This document shows, piece by piece, positions 2 to 6,370 of a stretch of DNA of 6,370 bases. The notes under the pieces are model-generated. The model ran no database searches. It was not told the origin of the DNA and saw only the letters and a list, made by a program, of their open reading frames with translations. The stretch lies in the IMG/VR virus record IMGVR_UViG_2737471855_000014. One strand, written 5' to 3'. How positions within the stretch are numbered: the stretch's first letter is position 1; each line of letters starts with the position of its first letter. The stretch comes from a virus (lineage: Duplodnaviria > Heunggongvirae > Uroviricota > Caudoviricetes). Position numbers and translations under genes: made by a program.

Positions 2-157
2 GAGGGGATCTCTCAGTACTTTGTTGCAATGAGGGCAGATCAAAAGGGCACCTTTTTGTACTCTTGAAAAACTGTGTTCTGACTCTTGGGTGCAGTTTGG
101 GCAGGAACATTTAACGAGATAATTACGGCGTGATTTTGAGTTTTTACGTTCTGACAT
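2..157 (-). CDS. N-terminal part of a small Cys4 zinc-ribbon-like ORF, running off the left edge of the window
   Basis: Reverse-strand ATG at 157 (plus-strand CAT 155-157) preceded by AGGAA about 6 nt upstream. My hand translation is MSERKNSKSRRNYLVKCSCPNCTQESEHSFSRVQKGALLICPHCNKVLRDPL with no stop before the window edge. Two CxxC pairs about 18 residues apart form a zinc-ribbon pattern. Not in the supplied ORF track, presumably because it is incomplete. Confidence 0.3.
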   Translation of the reverse strand, partial: MSERKNSKSRRNYLVKCSCPNCTQESEHSFSRVQKGALLICPHCNKVLRDPL

Positions 158-376
158 AGGCTTTTCCTGTATAAATGGCCGTATACAGTACACTAAATAT
201 GAAAACATTTCTCGTATTATTATTTTATATATGACTTTCTTTCAAAATAATTACCCACATTTTTAATGTGTATGTTTTTTTAGCGCCGTTGAGAACAACG
301 TGTGCTGTCAAAACTACCCCGTAGACTCCGATCTTTTCAAACATATTGCACCATCCGTGTACATCGGGGTGAGGAT

Positions 377-592
377 ATGAAATCAATGGATAAGTTAACA
401 ACAGGTGTTGCCTATGGCACATCGGCGGGTAATGCTGGTTTCTGGGCATTGCAGTTACTCGATAAAGTAACTCCGTCACAGTGGGCTGCAATCGGTGTGC
501 TGGGTAGCCTGGTTTTTGGCCTGCTGACGTATCTGACAAATCTTTATTTCAAGATTAAAGAAGACAGGCGTAAGGCTGCGAGAGGAGAGTAA
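377..592 (+). CDS. essQ: class II holin (pinholin, phage 21 S21-like) with dual translational start
   Basis: ATG at 377 gives a 71-aa protein [71 protein letters not shown] with two predicted TMDs and a charged C-terminus. Met1-Lys-Ser-Met4 is the holin/antiholin dual-start arrangement. The track ORF 302..592 is the same frame extended upstream to a GTG. Symbol assigned from recollection of the Qin/DLP12 holins. Confidence 0.85.
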
Positions 593-596
593 TCCA

Positions 597-904
597 ATGA
601 CTCAAGACTATGAACTGGTTGTGAAAGGAGTCCGTAATTTTGAGAATAAAGTTACGGTAACTGTAGCCTTACAGGACAAAGAACGCTTTGACGGTGAAAT
701 TTTTGACCTGGATGTCGCCATGGACCGTGTTGAAGGAGCTGCGCTGGAGTTTTATGAGGCAGCAGCCAGAAGGAGCGTCCGGCAAGTCTTCCTGGAAGTA
801 GCAGAAAAATTGTCAGAAAAAGTTGAGTCTTATCTGCAGCATCAGTACTCCTTTAAGATTGAAAATCCTGCCAATAAGCACGAGCGTCCTCATCATAAAT
901 ATCT

Positions 905-908
<4 letters not shown>
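597..908 (+). CDS. ydfR: YdfR-like protein of unknown function (DUF1327-type), inserted between holin and endolysin
   Basis: 103-aa ORF. An AGAGGAGAG Shine-Dalgarno at 581-589 sits 7 nt before the ATG at 597, and the stop overlaps the endolysin start (ATGA at 905-908). Acidic, no TM segment. Matches my recollection of Qin ydfR (103 aa) between essQ and rrrQ. Confidence 0.8.
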
Positions 909-1932
<1,024 letters not shown>

Positions 1933-2182
1933 GGTAATATTAAATCGGAACATTTACATCGCGGAATGTAAAATTTAAATAAAAAGGACTCTTCCATGAG
2001 CCAAAATTCCTGAAATCTTAAGGGTAAGATAAAAGGTCTTAATCAGAATGACACGTTTTATTAATAAATAAAGCTATTCTTTCATTGCTGTGTTTTTCTT
2101 TACAAAAGTAATCCTTGCTATGGGTGGTTAATCATGCGTTAATGGTGTTCTGGTTTGTTACAAATTTATCTGAAGCAGTCAT

Positions 2183-2191
2183 TGTTATAAT
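2183..2191 (+). promoter_or_regulatory. candidate extended -10 promoter element (TGnTATAAT) upstream of cspI
   Basis: TGTTATAAT at 2183-2191, a perfect TATAAT with upstream TG, in an AT-rich leader. It would give a roughly 95-nt 5' UTR before cspI, in line with the long leaders of cold-shock genes. No good -35 hexamer at 17 bp spacing. Sequence pattern only. Confidence 0.3.
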
Positions 2192-2294
2192 TTTATTATT
2201 TGTACCTCTTGAGATTTCCTTGTTGGTTTTTCTCTCTGATATTTTTTTTCGGACCATTCTGCCCAAGGGCTAATTTCTTCAAAAGGTAATAATT

Positions 2295-2507
2295 ATGTCT
2301 AACAAAATGACTGGTTTAGTGAAATGGTTTAACCCTGAAAAAGGTTTTGGTTTCATCACGCCGAAAGATGGCAGCAAAGATGTGTTTGTCCATTTCTCAG
2401 CAATTCAGAGCAACGATTTCAAAACATTAACTGAGAATCAGGAAGTTGAATTTGGTATTGAGAACGGACCTAAAGGTCCTGCCGCTGTTCATGTAGTGGC
2501 GCTTTGA
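2295..2507 (+). CDS. cspI: cold-shock protein, CspA family (S1-like cold-shock domain)
   Basis: 70-aa [73 protein letters not shown] with RNP1 (KGFGFI) and RNP2 (VFVHF) motifs. AAGGTAA Shine-Dalgarno-like sequence upstream. Matches my recollection of Qin CspI. Confidence 0.9.
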
Positions 2508-2711
2508 GGTAGACAATATTACAAACCATATTCACTTTAGATGCCCGTGTTGTCATGGTTCCCAGTATAGAACATCATCTTTTGATGTTTCTGACATGAA
2601 TCCTTTCGGGGCAAAATGTATCTTTTGTAAATCAATGATGATTACATTTGATAATATTTCACAATACTTAAATGCCAGCCGTCTGTCGTTGGATTTAAAA
2701 AAGTGAAAATG

Positions 2712-2736
2712 AAGGCTCCTTCGGGAGCTTTTTTGC
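2712..2736 (+). terminator. rho-independent terminator (UUCG-tetraloop hairpin plus T-tract)
   Basis: GGCUCC (2714-2719), UUCG loop (2720-2723), GGAGC (2724-2728), extendable by A-U pairs at 2712/2713 with 2730/2731, then a T-run through 2734. Lies 6 nt after the stop of the Cys4 frame and about 200 nt after cspI. Confidence 0.5.
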
Positions 2737-2778
2737 TTGGTGTCTATTCGATGGATACTCACATACTACGGTAACATC

Positions 2779-3009
2779 ATGAAAAAAATCATAGTTTTTT
2801 TTAACTCTGAACCAGCAGTGGTAGTGCCAGCGATGACTGGAGTTAACACCATCATGCGTGAATATCCAAATGGCGAAAAAACACACCTTACTGTAATGGC
2901 CGCAGGGTTTCCATCTCTGACCGGAGATCATAAAGTCATTTATGTAGCCGCGGATCGACATGTTACTTCAGAAGAAATTCTGGAAGCAGCAATAAGGCTC
3001 TTGAGTTGA
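2779..3009 (+). CDS. hypothetical small protein (possibly the ynfN-equivalent; start uncertain)
   Basis: ATG at 2779 gives 76 aa (MKKIIVFFNSEPAVVVPAMTGVNTIMREYPNGEKTHLTVMAAGFPSLTGDHKVIYVAADRHVTSEEILEAAIRLLS). The track's 2737 start is a TTG. Internal ATGs at 2833 and 2854 would give 58 or 51 aa. No strong Shine-Dalgarno at any of them. The gene lies between cspI and gnsB, where K-12 Qin carries ynfN, but I cannot confirm the sequence. Confidence 0.45.
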   Translation: MKKIIVFFNSEPAVVVPAMTGVNTIMREYPNGEKTHLTVMAAGFPSLTGDHKVIYVAADRHVTSEEILEAAIRLLS

Positions 3010-3180
3010 TTTGATGCTATTGCATTGATAATTCAGGAAAATTCTCTTTGTCTGTTTGTGTAAAATTTAGACTATCGTATGTTGATTATTGCGATGTTTC
3101 ATCTTATCTTTTACACGTTTGCACCATATAATCGACTTACTGTGTAACTGGAAAGTCATAACAGACTAAAAGAGGAAATG

Positions 3181-3354
3181 ATGAATATTGAAAACTTAAA
3201 AACAAAAGCAGAAGCAGATATTTCTGAATATATAACAAAAAAAATTATTGAACTTAAGAAAAAGACCGGGAAAGAAGTTACCAGTATTCAGTTTACCGCA
3301 CGGGAAAAAATGACGGGTCTTGAAAGCTATGATGTCAAGATTAATTTAATCTGA
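3181..3354 (+). CDS. gnsB: GnsA/GnsB-family small protein
   Basis: 57-aa ORF MNIENLKTKAEADISEYITKKIIELKKKTGKEVTSIQFTAREKMTGLESYDVKINLI, found by hand and too short for the supplied track. AGAGGAA 4-5 nt before the ATG at 3181. A TATAAT hexamer at 3127-3132 may be its -10. Matches my recollection of GnsB. Confidence 0.85.
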   Translation: MNIENLKTKAEADISEYITKKIIELKKKTGKEVTSIQFTAREKMTGLESYDVKINLI

Positions 3355-3383
3355 TGTATTCAATAATAAAATTTATCCATAAA

Positions 3384-3406
3384 CCTCGTTTTTACGGGGT
3401 TTTGTT
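3384..3406 (+). terminator. candidate rho-independent terminator after gnsB
   Basis: CCUCG (3384-3388) pairs with CGGGG (3395-3399) including one G-U wobble, with a 6-nt loop, followed by TTTTGTT. Lies 30 nt after the gnsB stop. Confidence 0.4.
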
Positions 3407-3468
3407 ATATTTGAATGGTTCCGAATATCTAAATCACAATTGTTGATGGTTTTTATTAAACCAATGCA

Positions 3469-3497
3469 GTCCGGCTCAGGAGTGAGAGAAGCCGGAC
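3469..3497 (-). terminator. hairpin just 3' of ydfO; possible weak or bidirectional terminator
   Basis: Perfect 8-bp stem GTCCGGCT (3469-3476) with AGCCGGAC (3490-3497) around a 13-nt loop. It sits 8 nt beyond the ydfO stop and is convergent with gnsB. The U-tract is poor on both strands. Confidence 0.3.
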
Positions 3498-3505
3498 GTT
3501 ATGGT

Positions 3506-3916
3506 TTAGCGTGGTAAGATCTGTGTAGTTTTCTGGATGCTTTCAGTAAATAGTAATGAATTATCAAAGGTATAGTAATATTTTTTTTGTTCGTGGATAT
3601 TTGTAACCCACCGAAAAACTCCTGCTTTAGCAAGGTTTCTTCTGTATTCCTGAAATGTGATCTCTCTGGATTTCAGCTTATTAGAGGTCGTTTCTATAAG
3701 ATGCCTATCCTTTGAAAATTTGACAGACACAATGTTTTTTAGGCCCTTTAATAACACTGTATTATCATTTTTTAATACAATATGAACATTCTCTGTGGCT
3801 AAATAGTAAATGTAATGTGAGACATTGTGACGTTTTAGCTCAGAATAAAACCATTGATAGTTTAAATCGTTTCGAACTTTATCAAATATTTGTTTAAAAA
3901 TGACTACCTGATCCAT
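3506..3916 (-). CDS. ydfO: YdfO-like protein of unknown function (DUF1398 family)
   Basis: Track ORF 3506..3931, with the start set at the second Met (MDQVVIFKQ...) to give 136 aa. GGAAGG Shine-Dalgarno 7 nt upstream of that ATG. Visibly AT-rich codon usage. Matches my recollection of Qin YdfO (136 aa); lambda carries a homologue near its right end. Confidence 0.85.
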
Positions 3917-3973
3917 AGATAAACCTTCCATGTGATATGAGGGGGCGTAGTCTGCACGATTATCTAAATTGCT

Positions 3974-4207
3974 TCAATCTGGTCTGACCTGTTTTCTGAG
4001 CAATTCAGTAATGTCACTCTTTTCTTTGTTTGCTTCAGAAGAAACTCTTTTTTCTGAGCACAGTCTCCGGCGGCAGGCTTCAATGACCCAGGCTGAGAAA
4101 TTCCCGGACCCTTTTTGCTCAAGAGCGATGTTAATTTGTTCAATCATTTGGTTAGGAAAGCGGATGTTGCGGGTTGTTGTTCTGCGGGTTCTGTTCTTCG
4201 TTGACAT
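3974..4207 (-). CDS. ynfO: small ribbon-helix-helix (Arc/MetJ/CopG-like) putative DNA-binding protein
   Basis: 77-aa ORF. Arg/Thr-rich N-terminus, then an RHH-like core: beta-strand NIRFP, helix NQMIEQINIALEQ, Gly turn, helix NFSAWVIEACRRRL. Sits 57 bp upstream of ydfO on the same strand. The opposite-strand track ORF 3969..4235 is rejected. Confidence 0.7.
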   Translation of the reverse strand: MSTKNRTRRTTTRNIRFPNQMIEQINIALEQKGSGNFSAWVIEACRRRLCSEKRVSSEANKEKSDITELLRKQVRPD

Positions 4208-4374
4208 GAGGTTGCCCCGTATTCAGTGTCGCTGATTTGTATTGTCTGAAGTTGTTTTTACGTTAAGTTGATGCAGATCAATTAATACGATACCTGCGTC
4301 ATAATTGATTATTTGACGTGGTTTGATGGCCTCCACGCACGTTGTGATATGTAGATGATAATCATTATCACTTT

Positions 4375-4570
4375 ACGGGTCCTTTCCGGTGATCCGACAG
4401 GTTACGGGGCGGCGACCTCGCGGGTTTTCGCTATTTATGAAAATTTTCCGGTTTAAGGTGTTTCCGTTCTTCTTCGTCGTAACTTAATGTTTTTATTTAA
4501 AATACCCCCTGAAAAGAAAGGAAACGACAGGTGCTGAAAGCGGGCTTTTTGGCCTTTGTCGTTTCCTTTC
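4375..4570 (+). other. lambda-type cohesive end site (cosQ-cosN-cosB) in joined, prophage-form configuration
   Basis: 4371-4406 (...ACGGGTCCTTTCCGGTGATCCGACAGGTTACG) matches my recollection of the lambda right end. 4407-4418 GGGCGGCGACCT is the 12-nt cohesive-end sequence, followed by CGCGGGTTTTCGCTATTTATGAAAATTTTCCGG (lambda left end). cosB shows three (C)GTTTCC/GGAAACG Nu1-binding R elements near 4458-4466, 4519-4528 and 4557-4566, with an AT-rich IHF-type stretch at about 4474-4505. Confidence 0.85.
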
Positions 4571-4595
4571 TCTGTTTTTGTCCGTGGAATGAACA

Positions 4596-5141
4596 ATGGA
4601 AGTCAACAAAAAGCAGCTGGCTGACATTTTCGGTGCGAGTATCCGTACCATTCAGAACTGGCAGGAACAGGGAATGCCCGTTCTGCGAGGCGGTGGCAAG
4701 GGTAATGAGGTGCTTTATGATTCTGCCGCCGTCATAAAATGGTATGCCGAAAGGGATGCTGAAATTGAGAACGAAAAGCTGCGCCGGGAAGTTGAAGAAC
4801 TGCGGCAGGCCAGCGAGACAGATCTCCAGCCAGGGACTATTGAGTACGAACGCCATCGACTTACGCGTGCGCAGGCCGACGCACAGGAGCTGAAAAATGC
4901 CAGAGACTCCGCTGAAGTGGTGGAAACCGCATTCTGTACTTTCGTGCTGTCGCGGATCGCAGGTGAAATTGCCAGTATTCTCGACGGGATCCCCCTGTCG
5001 GTGCAGCGGCGTTTTCCGGAACTGGAAAACCGACATGTTGATTTCCTGAAACGGGATATCATCAAAGCCATGAACAAAGCAGCCGCGCTGGATGAACTGA
5101 TAACGGGGCGCACTTTGACGGTGACCAGAGCGGCACGGTGA
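4596..5141 (+). CDS. nohA: terminase small subunit (lambda Nu1-like) with a non-native C-terminal 12 residues
   Basis: 181-aa ORF starting MEVNKKQLADIFGASIRTIQNWQEQGMPVLRGGG, the Nu1 winged-HTH DNA-binding domain. Nu1-like through residue 169 (...AALDELI), then TGRTLTVTRAAR in place of lambda's PGLLSEYIEQSG. Directly downstream of cosB, as in lambda. Symbol is by position; the exact Qin paralogue is uncertain. Confidence 0.85.
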   Translation: MEVNKKQLADIFGASIRTIQNWQEQGMPVLRGGGKGNEVLYDSAAVIKWYAERDAEIENEKLRREVEELRQASETDLQPGTIEYERHRLTRAQADAQELKNARDSAEVVETAFCTFVLSRIAGEIASILDGIPLSVQRRFPELENRHVDFLKRDIIKAMNKAAALDELITGRTLTVTRAAR

Positions 5142-5401
5142 ATGGTGTCACGCCGCCAGCAGTTCAGCACCTGACCGCAGAAGTCACCGCAGACAGCGGG
5201 GAATACCAGGTGCTGGCGCGCTGGGACACGCCGAAGGTGGTGAAGGGGGTGAGCTTTATGCTTCGCCTGACCGTGGCAGCGGACGACGGCAGTGAGCGGT
5301 TGGTCAGCACGGCCCGGACGACGGAAACCACATATCGCTTCACGCAGCTGGCGCTGGGAAATTACAGGCTGACAGTCCGGGCGGTAAATGCATGGGGACA
5401 G
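5110..5401 (+). pseudogene. internal fragment of a J-like tail tip/host-specificity protein (gene remnant)
   Basis: Track frame 5138..5425 (GTG start) encodes [86 protein letters not shown]. By recollection this matches an internal region of lambda J (over 1100 aa). No credible start or Shine-Dalgarno. Bounded by junctions with Nu1 upstream and stf downstream. Confidence 0.65.
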
Positions 5402-5700
5402 CCGGTGCACATACCCATTCGATGACATTTGTTTCAGGTGGTTCCAGTGGTGCTCCGGGAAGTGGATCACCTGATTATTCTAAATACAGTGTTAACACTT
5501 CTTCTGCAGGCGCTCATACGCACTCTGTATCGGGTACTGCTGCAAGCGCAGGTGCACACGCACATACTGTCGGTATTGGTGCTCATACGCACTCCGTTGC
5601 GATTGGTTCACATGGACATACCATCACCGTTAACGCTGCTGGTAACGCGGAAAACACCGTCAAAAACATCGCATTTAACTATATTGTGAGGCTTGCGTAA
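5392..5700 (+). pseudogene. C-terminal fragment of a side tail fibre protein (Stf-like), possibly still translatable from a fortuitous ATG
   Basis: 102-aa frame with repeated G-A-H-T/A-H-S/T motifs and the conserved fibre C-terminus ...[24 protein letters not shown]. The N-terminal shaft portion of the fibre is absent. The stop overlaps the tfa start (TAATG at 5698-5702). Confidence 0.7.
5404..5622 (+). repeat. tandemly reiterated HxH tail-fibre repeat units (coding repeats)
   Basis: Five related 18-21-nt units encoding G-A-H-T-H-S-like peptides: GGTGCACATACCCATTCG (5404-5421), GCAGGCGCTCATACGCACTCT (5506-5526), GCAGGTGCACACGCACATACT (5548-5568), GGTGCTCATACGCACTCC (5578-5595) and GGTTCACATGGACATACC (5605-5622). 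Confidence 0.6.
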
Positions 5701-6275
5701 TGGCATTCAGAATGAGTGAACAACCACGGACCATAAAAATTTATAATCTGCTGGCCGGAACTAATGAATTTATTGGTGAAGGTGACGCATATATTCCGCC
5801 TCATACAGGTCTGCCAGCAAACAGTACCGATATTGCACCGCCAGATATTCCGGCAGGCTTCGTGGCTGTTTTCAACAGTGATGAGGCATCGTGGCATCTC
5901 GTTGAAGATCATCGGGGTAAAACGGTTTATGACGTGGCATCAGGGGACGCGTTATTTATTTCTGAACTCGGTCCGTTACCGGAAAATGTTACCTGGTTAT
6001 CGCCGGGAGGGGAATATCAGAAGTGGAACGGCACAGCCTGGGTGAAGGATACGGAAGCAGAAAAACTGTTCCGGATCCGGGAGGCGGAAGAAACAAAAAA
6101 CAGCCTGATGCAGATAGCCAGTGAGCATATAGCGCCGCTTCAGGATGCTGTGGATCTGGAGATCGCAACGGAGGAAGAAACCTTGTTGCTGGAAGCCTGG
6201 AAAAAGTATCGGGTGTTGCTGAACCGTGTTGATACATCAACTGCACCGGATATTGAATGGCCAGCACTGCCGTAG
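5700..6275 (+). CDS. tfaQ: tail fibre assembly protein (lambda Tfa-like chaperone)
   Basis: 191-aa [54 protein letters not shown]..., which closely matches my recollection of lambda Tfa along its length. The start overlaps the stop of the fibre fragment. Ends at TAG 6273-6275. Confidence 0.85.
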
Positions 6276-6370
6276 GGTAAAACATATAAATTCTGTCCTT
6301 GACCCACGATATTCAGACAGTCGTTGTATCTTAAGTTGACGTTACCCGCAGACGTCGATATTCCCTTGGT

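Follow-up and report, generated by a model that had tools for sequence, protein, structure and literature searches.

The lambda-type cos site in the stretch of DNA analysed here (6,370 nucleotides, referred to as the window) belongs to the cryptic lambdoid prophage Qin, in which it lies at the junction of the late region and the left arm. It has every sequence feature of a working cos of lambda specificity. We judge it likely, with good confidence, that the site is a relic of Qin that the terminase of a helper phage could cleave, that packaging begun there would come to a dead end, and that the consequence of cleavage would be recombinational.

Positions 17-6370 of the window are 100% identical to the chromosome of E. 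coli RM10410, and at least 80% of the window is found in 572 of 5426 complete E. coli genomes. The genes of RM10410 run in the order essD/essQ, ydfR, rrrQ, rzpQ, cspI, ymcF, ynfR, ynfN, gnsB, ydfO and ynfO (the last two on the minus strand) and nohA, after which come a pseudogene related to J, a fragment of a tail-fibre gene and tfaQ. In K-12 MG1655 this context bears the label "cryptic prophage Qin", and the annotations of both RM10410 and MG1655 show a lambdoid remnant between ydfJ and rspB with the characteristic Qin gene set (cspB/F/I, essQ, rrrQ, rzpQ, gnsB, ydfO, ynfO, nohA, tfaQ, pinQ). The possibility that the window is K-12 itself was considered and rejected, because its match is to RM10410-like strains and its Nu1 junction is not that of K-12. 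This Qin copy is a natural variant that has lost its head genes and most of its tail genes through a deletion joining codon 169 of Nu1 to codon ~600 of J.

The cos-nohA segment of Qin is already known and is not a new discovery; it and cos-nohD of prophage DLP12 are established features of E. coli K-12. Lambda terminase is said to cut the K-12 chromosome at nohA, a result credited to Kotani and colleagues (1992, Nucleic Acids Research), in whose work the noh genes were reportedly named. The name reportedly stands for "Nu one homologue" and is said to have been tied in the same work to the sites cut by lambda terminase. Espion and colleagues are said to have described, in 1983, lambda qin hybrids carrying Qin late genes (lambda qin111). 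The mechanism at the Qin cos is likewise already covered by published work on helper packaging and recombination (PMC4669245, PMC3945230).

The cos site and its surroundings comprise the following features, given in window coordinates with their strand.

4045..5108 (+): tract of near-identity to lambda, covering the right-end region, cos and Nu1 (blastn against DE3: 1064 bp, 98.2%)
4377..4383 (+): cosQ (GGGTCCT), the packaging-termination element, identical to lambda and located -30 to -24 from the cohesive end
4405..4420 (+): cosN, the cohesive end with 2 flanking bp on each side, identical to lambda
4421..4455 (+): spacer from cosN to R3 (I2 region), with neither substitution nor indel relative to lambda
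4456..4471 (+): R3 of cosB, lambda bp 50-65, with the single change C53T at window position 4459
4472..4514 (+): I1 region, the A/T-rich, IHF-binding interval between R3 and R2, placed by the order of the subsites, with the IHF core assigned to the interval and not to the base
4515..4530 (-): R2 of cosB, inverted, unchanged, an exact match to the lambda R2 core
4556..4571 (+): R1 of cosB, in which the first base of the 16-mer alone differs (lambda bp 151 C>T, window position 4556)
4596..5141 (+): nohA, a truncated terminase small subunit gene, annotated in RM10410 and homologous to Nu1
5099..5108 (+): deletion junction, at which Nu1 (codon ~169/170) runs into J (nucleotide ~1798), the two overlapping by ~10 bp (microhomology)
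5099..5405 (+): internal fragment of J (tail tip, Ig-like domain), a pseudogene with 91.9% identity to J of DE3
5494..5700 (+): C-terminal fragment of a side tail fibre gene, annotated as an incomplete tail fiber protein, with a Pfam Phage_fiber repeat
5700..6275 (+): tfaQ, a tail fibre assembly gene, by annotation and Pfam

A complete lambda-type cos occupies positions 4377-4595, in which cosQ, cosN and the spacer between cosN and R3 are identical to lambda and identity is unbroken between a point 110 bp before cosN and lambda bp 52. A chance match is excluded because the cos region aligns to lambda over 231 bp at 97.8% identity (E = 2e-109); for the longer near-identity tract, megablast returned 860 bp at 98.5%. 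We take GGGTCCT to be cosQ, following the definition given by Wieczorek and Feiss in 2001. The element acts in termination (PMC4669245), and cosN is defined as 16 bp (PMC9026076). The 12-nt cohesive-end sequence GGGCGGCGACCT lies at 4407-4418, the surrounding 22 bp are identical to lambda, and the nicks in cosN are predicted at 4406/4407 on the top strand and at 4418/4419 on the bottom strand.

In lambda, cosB has the order R3-I1-R2-R1, R3 comprises bp 50-65, and the spacing between cosN and cosB is critical (Murialdo and Feiss, PMC9026076). The window keeps this layout despite five substitutions relative to lambda NC_001416 (bp 53 C>T, 73 A>G, 102 T>C, 137 A>G and 151 C>T), two of which, those at lambda bp 73 and 102, fall in I1 at window positions 4479 and 4508. 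A single base of NC_001416, G138, is deleted as well, as it is in phage DE3, and all other phages aligned agree with DE3 in length at this point. TerS contacts R3 at bp 55-63 as determined by NMR, and bases 56, 58 and 59 are genetically critical (PMC9026076). R3 reads AGGTGTTTCCGTTCTT in the window against AGGCGTTTCCGTTCTT in lambda, and the contact segment at bp 55-63, TTTCCGTTC, is the same in both, with all three critical bases unchanged. C53T alters a base conserved across all three lambda R sequences, which counts against competence. By its cosN, its cosQ, the order and spacing of cosB and the contact bases of R3, the site is of the lambda type. The original prediction had called cosQ, cosN and all three R elements intact, allowing for mutations missed by eye. 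This stands for cosQ, cosN and R2, which are identical to lambda, and needs amending for R3, with C53T outside bp 55-63, and for R1, with its first base changed. Differences from reference lambda were found in cosB (the five substitutions and the G138 deletion) and none in cosN; all five substitutions are shared with phages.

The cos regions of nine phage records were aligned with that of the window. All five cosB substitutions are present together in phages 2H10 and phiSTEC1575-Stx2k, and subsets of them occur in Kati, PhiR47_2 and Stx1 phages. The 53T allele is found in 2H10, phiSTEC1575-Stx2k, Stx1_112808 and DLP12, both I1 substitutions are common to 2H10, phiSTEC1575-Stx2k, Stx1_112808, PhiR47_2 and Stx1_9793, and the R1 allele occurs in 2H10 and phiSTEC1575-Stx2k. 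All nine phages share TerS residues 1-74 with lambda Nu1, and residues 1-101 are identical to NohA, A75T included, in 2H10, phiSTEC1575-Stx2k, Kati, PhiR70_1 and two Stx1 phages. Owing to this identity of TerS, these phages have lambda packaging specificity and use this type of cosB. The cos of DLP12 carries three of the five substitutions (53T, 73G, 102C). Recombinants between lambda and DLP12 were all active, including those with lambda nu1 replaced, and 3 of 19 junctions lay to the right of cos (De Paepe et al., PMC3945230). The site is very probably cleavable by a terminase of lambda specificity, since its alleles are identical to those of isolated phages and lambda x DLP12 hybrids are viable. 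Its sequence features, the phage-shared alleles and the passive-prophage experiments (PMC4669245) together support the expectation that it could, in principle, be a substrate for the terminase of a helper lambdoid phage.

The gene that follows cos is a truncated Nu1. NohA consists of Nu1 residues 1-169, altered by A75T and L132I, and ends in 12 unrelated residues encoded by the deletion junction; it matches Pfam Phage_Nu1 with E = 4e-101. Its residues 1-74 and its DNA-binding domain are identical to lambda TerS, in agreement with the prediction of a Nu1 gene with this domain intact, the gene itself being truncated at residue 169. In blastn against DE3, window positions 4045-5108 align to 19719-20782 and positions 5099-5405 to 37382-37688. 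Homology to lambda Nu1 stops at 5108, positions 5099-5405 align to J nucleotides ~1798-2104, and ~16.6 kb are deleted, from terminase gene A through the first ~600 codons of J. The J fragment matches Pfam Ig_J (E = 6e-35) and is annotated as an incomplete J-related protein; beyond it, a second gap precedes the C-terminal tail-fibre fragment and tfaQ. The genes for terminase A, portal and capsid are absent from the window and none is annotated in the ~29.6 kb element of RM10410, which bears out the predicted loss of the large terminase and capsid genes. The C-terminal region of TerS binds TerL, and TerS without its last 30 residues binds TerL poorly (PMC9026076); for this reason NohA may be impaired in TerL binding.

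Two other readings of the cos-nohA segment have to be weighed against a cleavable relic. The site could be dead, with the cosB changes (C53T in R3, the edge of R1, the flanks in I1) or the chromosomal context abolishing recognition by terminase. C53T does change the C of the CGTTTCC motif common to R3, R2 and R1 of lambda, and R3 is the most critical R sequence (PMC9026076). However, isolated phages with the TerS DNA-binding domain of lambda carry all five substitutions at once, DLP12, which has 53T, 73G and 102C, gave viable lambda hybrids (PMC3945230), and the critical bases 56, 58 and 59 are those of lambda, as are the NMR contact segment 55-63 and the spacing from cosN to R3, so that we consider a dead site very unlikely. 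Inactivation of cosB by C53T in particular was rejected: the allele occurs with the other four in phages with lambda TerS, and C53T occurs in DLP12 as well. The segment could also have been kept because NohA interferes with infecting phages, either by occupying cosB or by poisoning TerS oligomers, as a dominant-negative protein loosely resembling Rpp. NohA has the make-up for this, with the DNA-binding and oligomerisation region intact and the TerL-binding C-terminus altered (Nu1 1-169 kept, the last 12 lost), and loss of the last 30 residues of TerS, whose C-terminus binds TerL, weakens binding (PMC9026076). Three independent decay events have moreover spared Nu1 largely or wholly, in the window, in K-12 Qin and in DLP12, which has a full-length nohD. 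Yet lambda grows on K-12, which has both nohA and nohD, the end of the reading frame is made of junction-derived residues as expected of an accidental fusion, and with just 12 residues lost TerL binding may persist; interference by NohA is the least probable of the readings considered here.

A cleavable relic raises the question of where packaging would lead. Lambda packaging starts at cosN and cosB and is terminated by cosQ and cosN, the terminase remaining on the side of cosB and packaging towards it (PMC4669245). The direction here is the plus strand of the window, through nohA', tfaQ and pinQ and then the host genes ydfJ, dcp, marRAB, lsr and hipBA (marRAB at 17-18 kb and hipBA at 45-47 kb downstream) and away from the Qin accessory genes cspI, gnsB and ydfO. 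Helper terminase can begin packaging from the cos of prophages that are repressed and unexcised, even partial ones with the genes from Nu1 to the tail deleted, and the particles obtained by Feiss with helper and passive prophage arise only via termination at a second, downstream cos (PMC4669245). Terminases of cos phages need a second cos for the terminal cut, and uncut protruding DNA blocks tail attachment (Chiang et al., PMC6687093). A 22-mer cosN search allowing up to 4 mismatches on both strands, run over 120 kb of RM10410 joined around the site, found no second cosN from -58 to +62 kb. In the carriers Z1323CEC0017 and JKHS016, no prophage and no cos is present 8-56 kb downstream. The three genomes checked therefore have no co-oriented cos 0.75-1.05 genome lengths downstream, the arrangement that marks a two-cos passive prophage. 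Since no second cos lies within reach, initiation at the Qin cos would lead to unterminated, non-infectious heads. Helper packaging from the cos of an unexcised prophage is reportedly the source of lambda doc particles, said to have been described by Sternberg and Weisberg in 1975. The passive-prophage substrates of the laboratory are, like the Qin cos, chromosomal cos sites in repressed or partial prophages; a helper's terminase works on them in trans and carries packaging from cosN over cosB into the DNA alongside (PMC4669245). Unlike Qin, the productive ones have a second cos one genome length downstream.

These observations bear on the proposal that, by virtue of its cos, the defective prophage or the DNA next to it becomes a helper-dependent mobile unit, similar to a cos-type satellite, whose cargo a lambdoid helper would transfer. 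In its favour, the Qin cos is competent by sequence, chromosomal cos sites are used in trans by helper terminase (PMC4669245), and matching helpers are probably common, given that cos-Nu1 segments of the lambda type are present in 5183 of 5426 complete E. coli genomes (about 95%), at a median of 3 places in each. The RM10410 copy has int and xis annotated as intact, as opposed to the intQ pseudogene of K-12, and this copy could excise. One carrier has a Tn3-family transposon with aph(3'')-Ib and aph(6)-Id at 29-42 kb downstream, within the first would-be headful. Against it, the three genomes showed no co-oriented second cos within reach, and one is needed for the terminal cut and for tails (PMC6687093). 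Lambda infection does not lead to excision of K-12 Qin (PMC3945230), and the direction of packaging leads away from the prophage accessory genes. The element of RM10410, at ~29.6 kb, has ~61% of the 48.5 kb of lambda and a dimer would have ~122%. Lambda packages roughly 75-105% of its genome length, according to Feiss and co-workers, and the size of monomer and dimer is unsuitable because both fall outside this range.

E. coli cos-type PICIs are, like Qin, chromosomal, lack morphogenetic genes and have a lambda-like cosQ and cosN beside a winged-helix DNA-binding gene, but they excise and replicate on helper induction, encode Rpp, block the helper and lack lambda cosB (PMC9026076). The Qin element, in contrast, keeps lambda cosB and a remnant of terS. 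No PICI replication module (primase-helicase and origin), Rpp or AlpA is annotated in its ~29.6 kb. Its early region consists of IS elements and pseudogenes with no immunity genes annotated, a truncated Nu1 (Pfam Phage_Nu1) follows cos where a PICI would have Rpp, and ~29.6 kb does not suit the capsid of the helper or a remodelled one. Membership in the class of cos-type satellites is not supported. With no second cos within reach, no annotated replication module or Rpp, and the wrong size and direction, the predicted helper-dependent mobilisation of adjacent cargo is not supported, and we regard it as unlikely. A narrower possibility is that some natural strains have a second lambdoid prophage with a cos 36-51 kb downstream and co-oriented with a Qin- or DLP12-type cos, in which case helper terminase would start at the cryptic cos and end at the second, giving mature particles with a defined chromosomal segment. 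This is a long shot. If true, the segment would be dcp, marRAB, lsr and hipBA, plus the strA/strB transposon in one strain, and the process would be a counterpart of lateral transduction among cos phages, seeded by the cos sites of cryptic prophages.

The preferred reading, a cleavable relic with recombinational consequences, draws on comparison with the related sites. The cos-nohA of K-12 Qin (b1548 region) has the same context (ydfJ ... rspB), 99.7% identity over window positions 17-5108 and, in common with the window, the gene order essQ, ydfR, rrrQ, rzpQ, cspI, gnsB, ydfO, ynfO, cos, nohA, tfaQ. It differs in that its Nu1 is 16 bp longer, reaching ~codon 176, and is joined to stfQ, whereas that of the window passes at codon 169 into the J fragment. 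It differs further at seven positions of cosB, with G54A in R3 instead of the C53T of the window. DLP12 of K-12 has likewise lost its head genes and kept cos-nohD, in which a Nu1 homologue comes after a cos of the lambda type (alleles 53T, 73G and 102C); it differs from the window in its full-length nohD (181 aa) followed by a fragment of A (aaaD), in its chromosomal site and in its longer homology to lambda (3.3 kb). In experiments, lambda exchanged DNA with DLP12 near cos and obtained functional nu1, R and Rz from it (PMC3945230). Lambda, 2H10, phiSTEC1575-Stx2k, HK629/HK630 and the Stx1 phages share cosQ, cosN, the spacing, the order of subsites and the TerS DNA-binding domain with the window. 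In these phages, terS (at full length), terL and the head genes come after cos, which is duplicated in concatemers, whereas Qin has a single chromosomal copy of cos beside a truncated terS.

Lambda gains DNA from DLP12, Qin and Rac by homologous recombination, and 10 of 19 lambda-DLP12 junctions adjoin cos, which the authors attribute to double-strand breaks made by terminase (De Paepe et al., PMC3945230). Between the window and K-12 Qin there are 13 differences over 5.1 kb, of which seven lie inside the 130-bp cosB (binomial P about 1e-8); 11 of the 13 fall in 4459-5103 and none in the 876 bp to the left. This cluster of differences just to the right of cosN fits the pattern that a recombination junction at or near cosN would have left. 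The junctions of the Nu1 deletion differ between the two lineages, which indicates that the right arm decayed independently in that of the window and that of K-12. One ancient replacement of the whole right arm, as opposed to repeated exchange stimulated by cos, could also account for the cluster of differences.

Under the preferred reading, a phage of lambda specificity growing in the cell would provide TerS2:TerL protomers, which would assemble with IHF on the cosB of Qin. The assembled terminase would nick cosN and so produce a double-strand break in the chromosome. Translocation would start rightwards, through nohA', tfaQ and pinQ and on into ydfJ, dcp, marRAB, lsr and hipBA. Without a co-oriented cos one genome length downstream the terminal cut would fail, and the resulting particles would be dead ends resembling lambda doc, not transducing phage. 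The break, together with ~1 kb of 98% homology to lambda-like phages, would make the site a preferred crossover point between Qin and an incoming phage, and the exchange would yield hybrid phages and a converted copy of the prophage. The most likely real consequences of the site are cleavage by terminase and homologous exchange with infecting lambdoid phages stimulated by cos, and recombination is probably the consequence that matters biologically. We would regard the cos site as a relic, preserved through recency and repeated gene conversion, not through selection for mobilisation.

As a discovery the site has little weight, the behaviour of the Qin cos being already predicted by lambda biology, and it would have wider significance only if chromosomal cos sites paired a head length apart cause defined chromosomal segments to be transferred at high frequency. 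For the biology of E. coli, the Qin cos is a probable natural target of lambda terminase in the chromosome of many strains, and cos-nohA is a patch of homology for the exchange of late-gene modules between infecting lambdoid phages and defective prophages.

The copy of Qin in the window and Qin of K-12 (L012) differ at 13 positions over the 5.1 kb compared, and these positions are distributed unevenly. Seven of the 13 differences fall within the 130-bp cosB. The stretch running from cosB to where the Nu1 homology ends (window 4459-5103) holds 11 of them, and the 876 bp to the left of this cluster contain none. Judged from the sequence, this combination of a dense cluster and an identical left flank looks like the trace of a recombination event whose junction lay at cosN or close to it. 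The cos site of K-12 Qin itself carries G54A (lambda bp 54) in R3 and is also altered near bp 144 and near bp 175; these changes are all absent from the aligned phages and from the DLP12 copy. The K-12 Qin cos may be more degenerate than the cos in the window.

Variation at cos was also observed among the phages used for alignment. The isolated lambdoid phage PhiR70_1 (L005) has a variant cohesive-end sequence at cosN, GGGCGGAGACCT (C7>A). Reference lambda (NC_001416) has an additional G at bp 138 (GCGAGGCTTTTT) compared with DE3, whereas the window and all other aligned lambdoid phages have the DE3 length at this position. Nu1 starts at bp 190 at the DE3 length and at bp 191 with the extra G; the discrepancy reflects a polymorphism or else an old difference in sequencing.

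In NZ_OY754443.1 (H81; 2273900-2275529), window 4370-5420 is matched at 100% identity in two pieces over 1630 bp, which implies an insertion of ~580 bp inside the cos-nohA-J' segment. Z1323CEC0017, another carrier of the Qin copy found in the window, has a Tn3-family transposon block with aph(3'')-Ib and aph(6)-Id (L018 14462-26672) inserted between lsrF and lsrG. Measured from the Qin cos in the direction of packaging, this block lies ~29-42 kb downstream, within a single lambda head-length.

In E. coli RM10410, the annotation of the Qin-like element lists both the excisionase and the integrase (426 aa), which adjoin rspB, as intact (L017 3737-5303, record 1779736-1781302), whereas intQ is a pseudogene in K-12 Qin. 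The RM10410 element contains at least five IS insertions. The final ~75 bp of the window (6295-6370) lead up to an insertion of the IS3 family, which lies between tfaQ and pinQ, and RM10410 is the sole match to this stretch among the top hits. Two Rfam matches in the window score above the gathering threshold:

2149-2534, cspA thermoregulator, spanning both cspI and its leader (112.8 bits)
6043-6241, IS009 family, within tfaQ (221.5 bits)

The end points of the head and tail gene deletion are unlike between the two Qin lineages:

5099-5108, junction in the window, Nu1 codon 169 joined to the J fragment
nohA/stfQ junction in K-12 Qin, Nu1 codon ~176 joined to stfQ

Unlike both Qin lineages, in which Nu1 is cut at these codons, DLP12 retains a full-length Nu1 together with a fragment of A. 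The window Qin, K-12 Qin and DLP12 are three independent truncations, each of which ends within or just past the 3' end of Nu1.
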